Part shown: in pieces, positions 1,003-5,558 of the stretch
How positions within the stretch are numbered: the stretch's first letter is position 1
Layout of the letters: each line of letters starts with the position of its first letter
Virus record (IMG/VR): IMGVR_UViG_3300036766_000032
Span: 11,897 to 75,896 of that record
From: a virus
Length of the DNA: 64,000 bases
Direction: 5' to 3' (one strand)
Notes under the pieces: generated by a model
Seen by the model: the letters and a program-made list of their open reading frames with translations, nothing else
Databases searched by the model: none
Told to the model about the DNA's origin: nothing
Program-made: the position numbers and the translations under genes

Positions 1003-1441
1003 GAAAATGTTGGGTAGTCTTGTGGGGCAGATGGCCCCCCTTGTTGATGATCCATCGAAGTGGGTGGGAGTTGACGACTTGATTGAAATATACCTTGAGG
1101 AGTTTAATCGATTTGAGAAGACGGTCGTCCACACTAATCCCGATCTGAAGACCAAGTTCTGGCGGGACTCCCTCGGGTTGATCCGTAGCCGGATCCGAGG
1201 TCAGGAGAAGTCAAACATTGACCTCCTTCGTCGGAAGCATGCCGCGTACGGGGGTAAGTCCCTAATCTGGTGTGGTCATCTTGGAGTGGTGACCCGGAGC
1301 CTGGACAAGTTAGCCCGGATCAAGAACCTGGGGAATAATCCGGGGGTCGACAATCTAAATGAGTCGACCAACGATTCTTGGTCGGATCTTTTCAACTACG
1401 CCGTCCTGGGGTATCTTTTGTCGAAGGGGGGGATCACCTGA
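992..1441 (+). CDS. Nucleotide-modification-associated domain 1 (DUF1599-like) protein
   Basis: KHAAYG...R..DKLARIKNL...NES..DSW.DL.NYAV pattern. Confidence 0.75.
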   Translation: MINEKMLGSLVGQMAPLVDDPSKWVGVDDLIEIYLEEFNRFEKTVVHTNPDLKTKFWRDSLGLIRSRIRGQEKSNIDLLRRKHAAYGGKSLIWCGHLGVVTRSLDKLARIKNLGNNPGVDNLNESTNDSWSDLFNYAVLGYLLSKGGIT

Positions 1442-2826
1442 TGTGCGGAGTCAACTACACTCCTCTCGGAAGGGAGGTAGCTGAAAAGATGAATGAGTCG
1501 ATCGCCCACCGTGGTTTGGTCGGACGATCGAATGTGGACATGATCGGTCGACAGGGTCATTTAGGTCACGTCCGGCTTCCGATCCAGGGACTGTCGACGG
1601 AGCACGATCAACCGTACCACGGAGGAGAGGGGGGACGATGGACGATGGGATTCGTCGGAGAGGTGTTCAACTTCCGGGATTTTGATCCGGAAGCCTCCAG
1701 CGACGTAGAGGTCCTGATGGAGACGTGGGATTCGGACGGACTGAATATATTCCCCTTGTTCGACGGGTTCTGGGCGTGCATCATCCACGACCTAATGGAG
1801 GACGTCGTTCATGTGGTCACCGATCCGTTGGGAAAGAAGCCGCTGTACATACACGCGGCCTCATGTTCAATCTCATCTGAGATTAAGGCCCTCATTGAAG
1901 TGGCCGGAATTGACGCCCGGATAGAGTTCGATGAACTGTACTTCTCATCTGTCCAGAAGTGGGGGTACCACGTCGGGGACGAGACTCCGATCAAAGGGAT
2001 CTTAAAGATCCGACCATCAACTCATCTAGTAATCCGAGATGGGAGGATCGTCTACGGGGAGAAGTACGTTGCAGTCAAACCGCGTAAAGTCGACCTACGT
2101 AACGCGATTGAGGTCTCAGTAAGTAACCGGATGGTTTCAGACGTTCCGGTAGCGTGTCTTCTGTCCGGAGGTCTAGACTCAAGCATCGTGTTCAAATTGA
2201 TGCTACGTCACCGCCAGGATTTTACCGTGATTCACGTTGACAACGGGGAAGAGGAGTTCCTGAACTATCTGGACATCCCATCATCAGTTACCGTGATCAA
2301 GGTCCCAAAGATAGACGATGCCGTTTCGATTGAGACCCTAAAGCAGATAGTGTTGGCTAATGAGAGTCCGTCCGATCTCGGGTCGATGATCCCTCAGTAC
2401 CGGATGTCAAAGGCCCTTAAGAAGAATGGTATCCACGTGGTCATGACCGGGGACGGCGCCGACGAACTGTTTGGGGGATACCGCCGGTCTCAAGAGTACG
2501 ACAGTCAGTGGAGCGACGTCTTTCAGGAACTGGTCTACTATCACCTGCCCCGGCTTGACAAATTGTCCATGGCGCACACTGTCGAACTTCGCAGCCCGTT
2601 CCTTAGCTTACCCGTCGTCGAAGCCGCCTTGGCGTTACCGTATGGGAGCCGCATCGATAAGAACGGGTTGAAGAGCGTGTTCACGGATATTATCCCGGCT
2701 CCGATCCTGGCACGTCCGAAACTCCCGCTGAAGTCCCCCCAAGTCAAGAATCTAGGCCTTGAATGGGTCCGACACCTGTGCAACGTCTACAAGGAGGCGA
2801 TCAATGAAAGTTACAGAAACGGATAA
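1441..2826 (+). CDS. Asparagine-synthetase-B-like glutamine amidotransferase
   Basis: N-terminal MCG (Ntn Cys), HRG, GHVRL, LSGGLDSS PP-loop, TGDGADELFGGY, ELRSPFL. Confidence 0.92.
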   Translation: MCGVNYTPLGREVAEKMNESIAHRGLVGRSNVDMIGRQGHLGHVRLPIQGLSTEHDQPYHGGEGGRWTMGFVGEVFNFRDFDPEASSDVEVLMETWDSDGLNIFPLFDGFWACIIHDLMEDVVHVVTDPLGKKPLYIHAASCSISSEIKALIEVAGIDARIEFDELYFSSVQKWGYHVGDETPIKGILKIRPSTHLVIRDGRIVYGEKYVAVKPRKVDLRNAIEVSVSNRMVSDVPVACLLSGGLDSSIVFKLMLRHRQDFTVIHVDNGEEEFLNYLDIPSSVTVIKVPKIDDAVSIETLKQIVLANESPSDLGSMIPQYRMSKALKKNGIHVVMTGDGADELFGGYRRSQEYDSQWSDVFQELVYYHLPRLDKLSMAHTVELRSPFLSLPVVEAALALPYGSRIDKNGLKSVFTDIIPAPILARPKLPLKSPQVKNLGLEWVRHLCNVYKEAINESYRNG

Positions 2827-3424: not shown

Positions 3425-3443
3425 AACCAGGAGAGGAAAAGTC

Positions 3444-5558
3444 ATGACTAGAAGTAAAGAGAAGTTGACAGCGGTTGGTATAACATGCGGCGTCGGGTCC
3501 ATGTTGATCGGAGCGAAGCAGGCTGGGTTCAAGGTGTTAGGTAATATCGAATGGCGGGGGTATTATTCTAGAGTCGATGAACAGGGTCGAAACACCTTCA
3601 GAGAATACTTCAAAGCCCCTTTAGTCCGCCGGATCGAGGACTTAGCAGCGGACGAAGTCGAACGGATGACTGGAGCGACACTGGCTTTTTCGCATCCGGA
3701 ATGCATCGTGTCAGGAGACGTCCCGGTGTACACAGCGGACGGGTGGCGTCCGATTAAGGGAATCGAGGTCGGGGAACTCGTTATGACCCACAAGGGGAGA
3801 TTCAGGCCTGTGGTTCGAGTGTTCCGGAACACGATGGTGAAAGGAGCGCCGAAGATTCGACTATACGCGTCCACCGAGAAGACCCATGGGAAGGCCCTGA
3901 CTGTAACGGCCAATCACCCTATTCGGACATCTGATGGCCGATGGGTTCGAGCTGACGAAGTATCCGCTGGGGATTCGATCCGAGTCCTGGCAAGACGATG
4001 TGAATCGTGCGGTTCGTGGATGCCCATGTGGGCCTCCGATGACGACTCGAAGCGTTGCTCCGTGTCGTGTTCGACGAAGGAAGTCTGGTCCTTGATGGAG
4101 AAAGTCGAGCGTGTCAACCAAACATCAGCGGCCCATGTAAAGACAAGAGCCCGAAGAAACTTCTTGAAGTCCGGACGTTCGAAGCTGGAAGAAACCCTCG
4201 AAGGAAGTCTCGTGGAAGTAGGGATCCCCCCCGAGTCTCAGTACCCGATCGGGGGATACTACGTTGACCTAGCGATCCCAGACAAGAAAATTGCTATCGA
4301 GTGTGACGGGGGAAACTTTCATAACATGGATGATCCGAGACGTCAGGAGGAAATCGAAGCCGCCGGGTGGACTGTACTACGTTTTGATGGATCGTCTATC
4401 GAGTCTGACCCAAGACGGTGCGCTGAGGTTGTCGAACGAGTCTTCCACAACTATTCAGGAAGCTATTCCTCGGTACCCGTGACAGTCACTCGGGTAGAGG
4501 TTCAAACGTCGGAACAGGACCGAACCGTCTACAATTTAGGCGTCGCGGAGGATAGCAGCTACATCGCGAAGGGATTCGTTATGAAAAACTGCGGTAATTT
4601 CTCAAATATGAGAGTCGACAAGACCGCGGCACTGACGGACCCTGGTGACATCCCCTTGGCGATGGACTTGGTCGGTAAGTTGAAACCCCGGTTCTTCGCC
4701 ATGGATGATCTTCCAAAGTCGTTCATGGCGTACACGATGGAAGAGTACGTCAACGCTCTTCCCGACTACGACTTATTTCCGGAATGGATTTCAAATTACA
4801 ACTACGGAAACATCCAGAAAAACCGGAAGAGATTCTTCATGATCGGTGCTCTGAAGAATGAGGGGTTCACTTTTCAGGCCGGGGAAGAACCAAACATCAC
4901 GACGGTTCGGGACCTGATTGAAGACCTCGTCCGGTCGCATGGGAAGATTCCGAACACCGAGAAGCACGTGGAAGGGAATGAGAACTGCGGTAGAGCGAAG
5001 GATATGTACGGGTATGGAAACCGATTCACATGGGCTGACCTCAAGAACTACTTCAAGAACAAACCATCCGGGGAAGTTATGACGTACGACTCAAGTTCCG
5101 GAGTTCGAAAGAGTCGCTTCGGATTTGGTAAGGGTCACTGGGATAGTTACGCCTACGTTCTAACGGGGGGGAGTCCGATCATTCACCCGATCCGGAATAC
5201 CCCGATGAACATTCGGGAACTTGCCCGGATTCAAGGAGCTCCAGACGACTTCGAGTTCTACGGAACCAAGGTGGACTCCAAGGGTAGGTGGAACATCGAG
5301 AAGAATATACACATGGTCAAGCAGGTGGGGAAGTTCATGCCAGTTCAGTTCTGCAACTACGTTTCTAAACAAGTGTCGGCCCACGTTAACGAGAAAAAAT
5401 TCAGGCCGTCGGGCCGTCGATTTCTTGCCCCAAACCAACACATCGACGACGCGAAGATGTGGTACTGCGAGAACGTTGGATACACAAACCAGAAAGGAGC
5501 TTGCACAGCTTGTTGGGTGTATGACCCCTGCGACGCCAAACACAAGGTGAAAATATGA
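3444..5558 (+). CDS. Divergent DNA cytosine-C5 methyltransferase homolog containing an intein; candidate carboxymethyltransferase
   Basis: Motif I TCGVGS, IV HPE|C after splicing, VI MDDL instead of ENV, VIII Q.NRKR, IX RELARIQGAPDDF, X KQVGKFMP. Confidence 0.85.
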   Translation: MTRSKEKLTAVGITCGVGSMLIGAKQAGFKVLGNIEWRGYYSRVDEQGRNTFREYFKAPLVRRIEDLAADEVERMTGATLAFSHPECIVSGDVPVYTADGWRPIKGIEVGELVMTHKGRFRPVVRVFRNTMVKGAPKIRLYASTEKTHGKALTVTANHPIRTSDGRWVRADEVSAGDSIRVLARRCESCGSWMPMWASDDDSKRCSVSCSTKEVWSLMEKVERVNQTSAAHVKTRARRNFLKSGRSKLEETLEGSLVEVGIPPESQYPIGGYYVDLAIPDKKIAIECDGGNFHNMDDPRRQEEIEAAGWTVLRFDGSSIESDPRRCAEVVERVFHNYSGSYSSVPVTVTRVEVQTSEQDRTVYNLGVAEDSSYIAKGFVMKNCGNFSNMRVDKTAALTDPGDIPLAMDLVGKLKPRFFAMDDLPKSFMAYTMEEYVNALPDYDLFPEWISNYNYGNIQKNRKRFFMIGALKNEGFTFQAGEEPNITTVRDLIEDLVRSHGKIPNTEKHVEGNENCGRAKDMYGYGNRFTWADLKNYFKNKPSGEVMTYDSSSGVRKSRFGFGKGHWDSYAYVLTGGSPIIHPIRNTPMNIRELARIQGAPDDFEFYGTKVDSKGRWNIEKNIHMVKQVGKFMPVQFCNYVSKQVSAHVNEKKFRPSGRRFLAPNQHIDDAKMWYCENVGYTNQKGACTACWVYDPCDAKHKVKI
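3702..4589 (+). mobile_element. Intein (296 aa) with zinc-ribbon and DUF559/Vsr-like endonuclease
   Basis: Block A CIVSGDVPV, block B TANHP, block F VYNLGV, end MKN|C; nuclease motifs YVDLA...IECDG..FH...GWTVLRF. Confidence 0.9.

Follow-up and report, generated by a model that had tools for sequence, protein, structure and literature searches.

Which reaction is to be expected of an enzyme that has kept the fold of the DNA cytosine-C5-methyltransferases but departs from their consensus in motifs IV, VI and X? This question is raised by a gene in IMG/VR record IMGVR_UViG_3300036766_000032, a complete viral genome of 75,896 bp with direct terminal repeats, of which a stretch of 64,000 nucleotides (bases 11897-75896 of the genome, here called the window, the positions of which are used throughout) was analysed. 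A sediment metagenome is the one sequencing run in which the genome was found, and it is probably the source. The gene is split by an intein, and its product, here called MT(K), is encoded in an operon together with a glutamine-dependent amidotransferase of the AsnB family (in the following AsnB) and with genes of nucleotide metabolism, among them the gene of a divergent thymidylate-synthase-fold enzyme, here called TS(D).

A system with which MT(K) has to be compared has been described in phages by Yang et al. (Nat Commun 2025; PMC12783734). It consists of CmoA, which synthesizes carboxy-S-adenosylmethionine (Cx-SAM), the C5-carboxymethyltransferase CmoX, and CmoY, a ligase of the AsnB superfamily that adds glycine; for a second class of ligases, which have a glutaminase domain, an amidation with ammonia has been predicted in the same study, though not proven. 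In CmoX, the residue R350 binds the carboxylate of Cx-SAM, and the authors equate R350 with N304 of HhaI (PMC12783734). The original prediction for our locus was that MT(K) installs a carboxymethyl group at C5 and that AsnB subsequently amidates this group. This is essentially the published CmoA-CmoX-CmoY scheme, and natural phage carboxymethyltransferases with a partner amide ligase, to which the prediction referred, have indeed been reported (PMC12783734). The reading that we favour here is a different one, and it falls somewhat short of an even chance: as judged from sequence comparisons, MT(K) may be a DNA-acting add-on that further derivatises the 5-hydroxymethylcytosine (5hmC) of the surrounding module, with AsnB being a second and independent add-on.

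The active site of MT(K) and its family

The open reading frame (ORF) of MT(K) comprises positions 3396-5558, and its likely start is the ATG at 3444, which is preceded by the ribosome-binding site GGAGAGG. The elements of the gene are the following:

3444-3701, + strand: N-extein of MT(K), with motif I TCGVGS, motif II NIEW and the first half of motif IV, SHPE
3702-4589, + strand: intein of 296 residues (Pfam Intein_splicing, Hint_2, MTES_1575 and DUF559)
4590-5558, + strand: C-extein of MT(K), with the catalytic Cys at 4590-4592, motifs VI-X and the C-terminal Cys cluster
4704-4712, + strand: DDL of motif VI (MDDLP), aligned with ENV of M.HaeIII, 3g7u and CmoX
4815-4832, + strand: motif VIII QKNRKR
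5214-5237, + strand: motif IX RELARIQG
5331-5333, + strand: Lys codon AAG of motif X, KQVGKFMP
5466-5531, + strand: C-terminal cluster C-X11-C-X2-C-X5-C

The assignment to the fold of PF00145 agrees with profile alignments by HMMER, in which 3g7u (4.5e-15) and M.HaeIII (3.7e-14) were matched and which upheld the equivalences in motifs IV and VI. An AlphaFold2 model of the homologue P0004, with a mean predicted local distance difference test score (pLDDT) of 92.6, is that of a two-domain DNA C5-methyltransferase with a target-recognition domain, and with this model Foldseek retrieved MET1, DNMT1, HaeIII, 3g7u, HhaI and 8yf3 at E values of 1e-17 to 1e-13. MT(K) thus resembles the classical C5-methyltransferases (M.HhaI, M.HaeIII, PF00145) in its fold, in the order of motifs I-X, in the catalytic Cys and the target-recognition domain, and also in the RxR of motif VIII and the RE.AR.QGFPD of motif IX. 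It differs from them by a Glu instead of the Pro before the Cys, a Gly instead of the Gln after it, D[D/N]L instead of ENV in motif VI, G[K/R] instead of GN in motif X (the consensus of which is GN(A/S)VP), an additional insertion that the family has between motifs IX and X, and a C-terminal module of four Cys in many members.

Two of these deviations, the DDL of motif VI and the Lys of motif X, had been the starting point of the original prediction, and both have stood up to translation and alignment. In a MAFFT alignment of the CmoX of Synechococcus phage S-B43 (SpCmoX, MN018232) with 30 intein-less homologues of MT(K) and the exteins of the window, the motif X Lys falls into the column of CmoX R350, and thereby of HhaI N304, in 31/31 family members, so that it is equivalent to the engineered N374K of M.MpeI, as had been proposed. 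Profile-profile alignment by hhalign (probability 97%, E 1.6e-11) concurs in the correspondences R350->K, ENV->DDL and SPPC->HPEC; as the search of the PDB with the C-extein alone ended short of motif X, the equivalence of this motif comes from the SpCmoX alignment and from hhalign. A third deviation, which the original prediction did not contain, is found in motif IV, which reads HPE before the intein and C-GNFS after it and thus has a Glu where the Pro-Cys dipeptide has its Pro.

These features are shared by a whole family. An exhaustive search with a hidden Markov model among 1.84 billion cluster representatives yielded 122 representatives at E <= 1e-30, which correspond to about 120 clusters defined at 50% identity, and the signature of HP[E/D]C in motif IV, D[D/N]L in motif VI and G[K/R] in motif X is conserved among them, which is why it cannot be a chance variant. 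The catalytic Cys is invariant, in the context HPEC or, in relatives, HPDC or HCDC, and the motif VI acid, the RxR, motif IX and the G[K/R] likewise show no or almost no variation. At the motif X position nearly every member has Lys, while Arg occurs in a few and Asn in a single one; with Lys, the R350 column carries the same charge as in CmoX, but a different residue. The GxG loop and the Glu-Trp of motif II are kept, whereas there is no conserved counterpart of Phe25 and Asp69 of CmoX; MT(K) is thus predicted to lose two adenine contacts and yet to retain the ribose-binding Glu-Trp.

The comparison with the CmoX of phage S-B43 (PDB 8YF3) gives a similarly mixed picture. Both proteins have the same fold (Foldseek E 1.7e-15, template modelling score 0.68 on the target), both have a cationic residue at the position of HhaI N304 and both have a gene of the AsnB superfamily nearby, but the identity is only 16%, and MT(K) has HPEC for SPPC and DDL for ENV, and with these a Gly for the Gln after the Cys, an Asp for the Glu of motif VI and a new His and Glu beside the Cys. 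CmoX proteins were defined by SPPC together with R350 (PMC12783734), and this filter excludes the MT(K) family. In the literature that was searched there is no description of the MT(K) family or of a cassette of thymidylate synthase (TS), AsnB and C5-methyltransferase. The family can be regarded as a so far undescribed clade within the DNA enzymes of the cytosine-C5-methyltransferase fold.

The family has been found in viral contigs. In a collection of isolate phages, tblastn gave no match to MT(K) at E <= 1e-8, blastn against the same collection gave short TS and deaminase matches only, and a scan of viral contigs with the Arg-type representative P0134 found no close relative of it. A search in hosts resulted in three matches, two of which are phage contigs that had been binned into metagenome-assembled genomes (MAGs), the third being a remnant in an alphaproteobacterial chromosome. 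This remnant (L139, positions 7983-8656), located on a contig of 2.78 Mb from an alphaproteobacterial MAG, codes for a truncated MT(K), with the N-extein and about 130 further residues, and has no AsnB or TS neighbours; it is possibly a decayed prophage copy, and it is the only hint at a host. In several lineages, MT(K) and an N6_N4 DNA methyltransferase form a single fused protein, as at the loci L013, L029 and L038 with ORFs of 751-863 residues and in the representatives P0122, P0123, P0126, P0136, P0139, P0140, P0142 and P0152 with 700-800 residues.

A sister clade (L052-L055) comprises small C5-methyltransferase-like proteins of about 25% identity, in which the residue before the Cys is acidic or basic (HPDC, QPKC), motif VI has ENL and motif X is variable; their neighbours are terminase-like genes and not nucleotide genes. 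The C-X11-C-X2-C-X5-C cluster at the C-terminus is kept in many, but not all, members of the MT(K) family, and its CX2CX5C spacing is reminiscent of the iron-sulfur cluster loops in DNA glycosylases and in Cas4/AddB nucleases, with a zinc site being equally possible.

The intein is inserted directly before the catalytic Cys of MT(K), which therefore doubles as the +1 nucleophile of splicing. It has the hallmarks of inteins, namely a Cys1 (CIVSGD...), the block B sequence TANH, and a terminal Asn followed by the +1 Cys (...VMKN, then C), and its penultimate residue is a Lys in place of the usual His. The endonuclease domain is of the Vsr-like DUF559/MTES_1575 type and not of the LAGLIDADG or HNH type. 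An intein of 35% identity occupies the identical site of MT(K) at another locus (L138, positions 6169-7119), and about 10 cluster representatives of the family have an insertion at this position.

The nucleotide module

The gene of MT(K) is part of a single compact operon (568-7784, + strand), in which stops and starts overlap and Shine-Dalgarno-like sequences are found upstream of the genes:

568-1002, + strand: HhH-GPD glycosylase-like protein of 144 residues, first gene of the operon
992-1441, + strand: DUF1599 ("nucleotide modification associated domain 1"), a weak Pfam match (2.8e-4) below the cut-off
1441-2826, + strand: AsnB-family glutamine-dependent amidotransferase (Pfam Asn_synthase 1.4e-42, and GATase_7)
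2804-3424, + strand: all-alpha nucleoside triphosphate (NTP) pyrophosphohydrolase, dUTPase_2/MazG-like (Pfam dUTPase_2 1.2e-08; PHROG nucleotide pyrophosphohydrolase 2.3e-20)
3444-5558, + strand: MT(K), the intein-split C5-methyltransferase-fold enzyme (Pfam PF00145 7.2e-12)
5555-6436, + strand: N6_N4 DNA amino-methyltransferase with NPPY motif (Pfam N6_N4_Mtase 1.7e-13)
6433-7215, + strand: TS(D), the divergent thymidylate-synthase-fold enzyme (PHROG thymidylate synthase 2.7e-26; no Pfam match)
7212-7784, + strand: deoxycytidine monophosphate (dCMP) deaminase (Pfam dCMP_cyt_deam_1 1.7e-14; PHROG dCMP deaminase 1.4e-35)

This neighbourhood recurs in relatives. A scan of IMG/VR resulted in 55 loci, 51 of which are in the MT(K) family, and for counts of the context the 34 loci with at least 4 kb on both flanks were used. 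TS(D) is present in all 34, AsnB in 30, an NTP pyrophosphatase of either the dUTPase_2/MazG-like or the PRA-PH type in 29 and a dCMP deaminase in 21, whereas CmoA is present in none; the co-occurrence that the original prediction had suggested as a check was thus found for AsnB and not for CmoA. The linkage of MT(K) with the module outlasts rearrangements of the gene order and a divergence down to 32-35% identity. Many relatives also have a thymidine monophosphate (TMP)-kinase-like P-loop gene, many have small DUF6378/DUF1599-like genes upstream of AsnB, and in some relatives ThyX and a trimeric dUTPase are encoded alongside TS(D).

The catalytic Cys of TS(D) lies in the sequence IPCTLG, and the sequence RSCD is followed at +8 by an Asp (7051-7053) at the position of N177 of E. 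coli ThyA and D179 of T4 gp42; this Asp is invariant in both TS(D) subtypes, as found in two alignments. The closest relatives with solved structures are the cytidine monophosphate (CMP) hydroxymethylase MilA, 9iqu and the T4 dCMP hydroxymethylase, and TS(D) is accordingly predicted from its sequence to be a dCMP hydroxymethylase or methylase. A role of TS(D) as the thymidylate (dTMP) synthase of the phage was considered as well and rejected, as ThyX coexists with it, as it has the Asp at the N177 position and as its nearest solved relatives are hydroxymethylases specific for cytosine. In the MetaGPA study, no family had a stronger association with contigs of modified cytosine than thymidylate synthase, and the authors hypothesized that an Asp at position 177 marks the thymidylate synthases of modified contigs (PMC8670742). 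According to the supplement of that study, dUTPase_2 is enriched in modified contigs and GATase_7 is not, which is not decisive (PMC8670742).

Taken as a set, these genes look like a module for the replacement of deoxycytidine (dC) as it is known from T4-type phages, in which gp56 (dCTPase), gp42, gp1 (a deoxynucleoside monophosphate (dNMP) kinase) and the dCMP deaminase Cd have this function. The content of the cassette is similar, with an NTP pyrophosphatase, an Asp-type TS homologue, a dCMP deaminase and, in relatives, the TMP-kinase-like gene being common to both, and the product of 2804-3424 would be the candidate dCTPase. In T4-type phages as well as in the phages considered here, the add-on genes are patchily distributed among relatives. 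All components are, however, very divergent from those of T4-type phages, and the add-ons are a C5-methyltransferase-fold enzyme and AsnB instead of glycosyl- and carbamoyl-transferases.

The base module occurs also without MT(K), for example in phage MW202777 and, if the TS(D) gene is taken as its marker, in many isolate phages. As MT(K) always comes with the module, but the module also exists without MT(K), MT(K) appears to depend on the module and not the reverse, which points to the product of the module as its substrate. A module for dC replacement would, moreover, leave few free C5 positions in the DNA, which speaks for a target whose C5 is substituted already.

Some further genes in and around the operon deserve mention. 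The HhH-GPD-like protein encoded by 568-1002, of which a single homologue, that of L029, was detected among the loci examined, might serve to excise bases that are unmodified or carry the wrong modification. Shortly upstream of the operon, the N-terminal half of the product of ORF 171-605 consists of Lys/Ala/Thr/Pro repeats (AKAT/AKPV) that are akin to histone-H1-like DNA-binding tails, and shortly downstream of the nucleotide module, a DHH/DHHA1 phosphoesterase is encoded at 8294-9184 (PHROG 4771, E 1.2e-83).

AsnB and its relation to MT(K)

The original prediction rightly recognized an intact glutamine-dependent AsnB homolog two genes upstream of MT(K) in the same operon. The protein begins with MCG and thereby has the N-terminal Cys nucleophile, followed by a glutaminase domain and the PP-loop sequence SGGLDS, and its profile matches E. 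coli AsnB (1ct9) at 2.3e-44. The phage protein has in common with E. coli AsnB (1CT9) the two domains as well as the Cys nucleophile and the PP-loop, but it is about 90 residues shorter and belongs to a clade that is found in phages only and that is tied to TS(D) modules and to a small P-loop protein.

A dedicated partnership of AsnB with MT(K), as implied by the original prediction, is not seen in this clade. Its 371 viral relatives that were found in a family scan are in many cases encoded in the same module without MT(K). AsnB is present, and MT(K) is missing throughout, in two complete genomes (82 kb and 42 kb), and, conversely, a genome of 92% completeness has MT(K) without AsnB. In the AsnB tree, obtained by a quick IQ-TREE search in which cellular and CmoA-linked rows are on long branches, phages with and without MT(K) are interleaved, with at least three changes of label. 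As either gene can occur without the other in complete or nearly complete genomes, and as the phages with and without MT(K) are interleaved on the tree, the two do not constitute a dedicated two-step pair; AsnB is a separate add-on of the module that is gained and lost independently.

The AsnB of the window is also not the ligase of the CmoX system. The phage clade has a support of 99, and the full-length AsnB-type genes of cyanophages that are linked to CmoA and CmoX fall outside with 27% identity, with this outside group having been drawn from the CmoA scan, which gave only close cyanophage relatives of SpCmoA. In BLASTP, AsnB matched SpCmoY with an E value of 0.088 in the PP-loop only. Whereas the neighbour of CmoX in S-B43 is CmoY, the neighbour of MT(K) is thus a full-length glutamine-dependent AsnB of a different clade.

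The clade to which the AsnB of the window belongs also includes a third set of genes (L080-L135, for example L086:6091-8029), found on contigs of 100-245 kb that resemble jumbo phages, within a conserved block of unannotated genes. There, AsnB always lies directly 3' of a P-loop gene of about 180 codons, and a NUDIX gene is nearby; on the most complete of these contigs (245 kb), a TS(D) gene is found at another place. The idea that the small P-loop gene of the relatives could be an obligate partner of AsnB had to be rejected for the genome studied here, which has no such gene.

Possible reactions of MT(K) and their significance

Under the reading that we favour, the product of the module, which on the grounds of gene content would most plausibly be 5hmC, replaces cytosine in the DNA. 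After replication, MT(K) would flip out the 5-substituted cytosine, most likely 5hmC, and would further derivatise its 5-CH2OH side chain. The retained Cys and the Asp of motif VI may activate the ring, the new His and Glu beside the Cys may handle the hydroxyl, and the Lys or Arg of motif X may hold an anionic group of a co-substrate or leaving group, be it the carboxylate of a cofactor of the S-adenosylmethionine (SAM) family or a phosphate ester; the interchange of Lys and Arg at this position argues for a role in anion binding rather than for a nucleophilic role. Candidate reactions are a substitution at the 5-CH2OH carbon via a Cys-C6 adduct, an O-alkylation from a cofactor of the SAM family, possibly Cx-SAM of the host, or the transfer of another charged group.

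The fold and the recurrent fusions with N6_N4 DNA methyltransferases speak for an action of MT(K) on DNA, and the changes in the active site would fit a pocket that has been remodelled for a bulkier 5-substituent and for a different chemical step. In their behaviour, MT(K) and AsnB resemble the variable decoration genes with which other phages that contain 5hmC counter modification-dependent restriction. In its most specific form, the proposal would be that MT(K) is the first natural enzyme of the C5-methyltransferase fold to act on 5hmC, with a Cys-C6 activation, an anion bound by Lys or Arg and no Cx-SAM synthase, and with AsnB adding a second, nitrogen-containing decoration; in this full form it is possible, but we consider it rather doubtful.

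Several points weigh against a derivatisation of 5hmC by MT(K). The replacement of cytosine by 5hmC is deduced solely from the gene content, and as no dNMP kinase was detectable in the genome of the window, the replacement may be incomplete. The strict co-occurrence with TS(D) could in part result from shared phage ancestry. We know of no natural C5-methyltransferase-fold enzyme that acts on 5hmC, and the sole precedent known to us is a side reaction in vitro, that of M.HhaI and M.SssI with 5hmC and thiols. The Lys or Arg at the R350 position, the Glu-Trp of motif II and the GxG loop would also suit an alkyltransferase that uses Cx-SAM.

This last point is the basis of the alternative that MT(K) is a CmoX-like C5-carboxymethyltransferase that uses Cx-SAM made by the CmoA of the host and acts on unmodified cytosine at specific sites, with AsnB amidating the resulting 5-carboxymethylcytosine (5cxmC) to 5-carbamoylmethylcytosine. 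The pathway of carboxymethylation and amidation put forward in the original prediction has survived in its premises, as the cationic Lys or Arg is aligned with CmoX R350 and HhaI N304, the fold is that of DNA C5-methyltransferases, and the chemistry has a precedent in phages: Cx-SAM is the cofactor of the engineered M.MpeI N374K as well as of the natural CmoX, in E. coli the CmoA of the host suffices for the function of CmoX, and the ligase class of the AsnB type with a glutaminase domain has been predicted to amidate 5cxmC (PMC12783734). The retained Cys, acid and RxR, as well as the presence of AsnB at most of the loci with full flanks, are in line with this as well.

The link to the rest of the CmoX system is not supported. 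A search for CmoA (TIGR00740), which as a positive control detects the CmoA of S-B43 at E 2.5e-34, found none in the window, as had been stated before, and none in the remaining 11.9 kb, hence none in the whole 75.9-kb genome; it likewise found none in 35 viral records with members of the MT(K) family, of which 14 have a completeness of 90% or more, and none in 36 viral records with the same AsnB clade. CmoA is thus absent from all 72 records including the genome studied here, whereas S-B43 has it together with its CmoX, and in the published set 4257 CmoA genes accompany 5615 CmoX genes (PMC12783734). In the three MAGs that hold an MT(K) gene, there was no CmoA above the cut-off either, which is weak evidence only. 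MT(K) is, moreover, always located within a module of the dC-replacement type with an Asp-type TS homologue, which the CmoX cluster of S-B43 lacks. AsnB and MT(K) are separable in genomes as well as on the tree, the AsnB clade is not the one linked to CmoA, and the SPPC and ENV motifs are altered, with extra acidic residues that are ill-suited to a carboxylate substrate. A carboxymethylation of unmodified cytosine by MT(K) is therefore unlikely.

MT(K) might also be an ordinary SAM-dependent and sequence-specific orphan methyltransferase that produces 5-methylcytosine as a protection against host restriction, in which case the odd motifs would be neutral and AsnB and TS would be unrelated neighbours. 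The set of C5-methyltransferase motifs is complete and the fold is the expected one, and the patchy presence of MT(K), as well as its position in the same slot as an N6_N4 DNA methyltransferase or its fusion to one, is common for anti-restriction methyltransferases. Neutral motifs would, however, hardly result in five active-site changes that are invariant or nearly so across about 120 clusters. MT(K) never occurs outside of TS(D) modules, which would not be required of a generic orphan methyltransferase, and C5 is blocked if cytosine is replaced, so that this explanation has to be regarded as improbable. The weakest alternative, to which we assign very little likelihood, is that MT(K) uses ordinary SAM to transfer a 3-amino-3-carboxypropyl group or another charged fragment to C5 of cytosine or to the hydroxyl of 5hmC, the carboxylate of which AsnB may amidate: it would account for one cationic and several anionic invariant residues, as Lys or Arg would hold the carboxylate and the new Glu and Asp the ammonium, and also for the missing CmoA and the retained ribose/adenine contacts of the Glu-Trp, but it is purely conjectural, has no precedent on DNA or with this fold, and is at odds with the separability of AsnB from MT(K).

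Hypermodifications of phage DNA govern the sensitivity to restriction, to CRISPR and to modification-dependent nucleases, and enzymes for the mapping of epigenomes, such as the T4 beta-glucosyltransferase, carboxymethyltransferases and TET-like enzymes, have come from the study of such modifications. That AsnB and MT(K) have each been added independently to an Asp-type TS module is a comparative result that is useful in itself. If MT(K) does act on 5hmC, or if its cofactor is neither SAM nor Cx-SAM, this would be a new type of reaction for a very well studied fold, and it would provide a new handle for the labelling of DNA.

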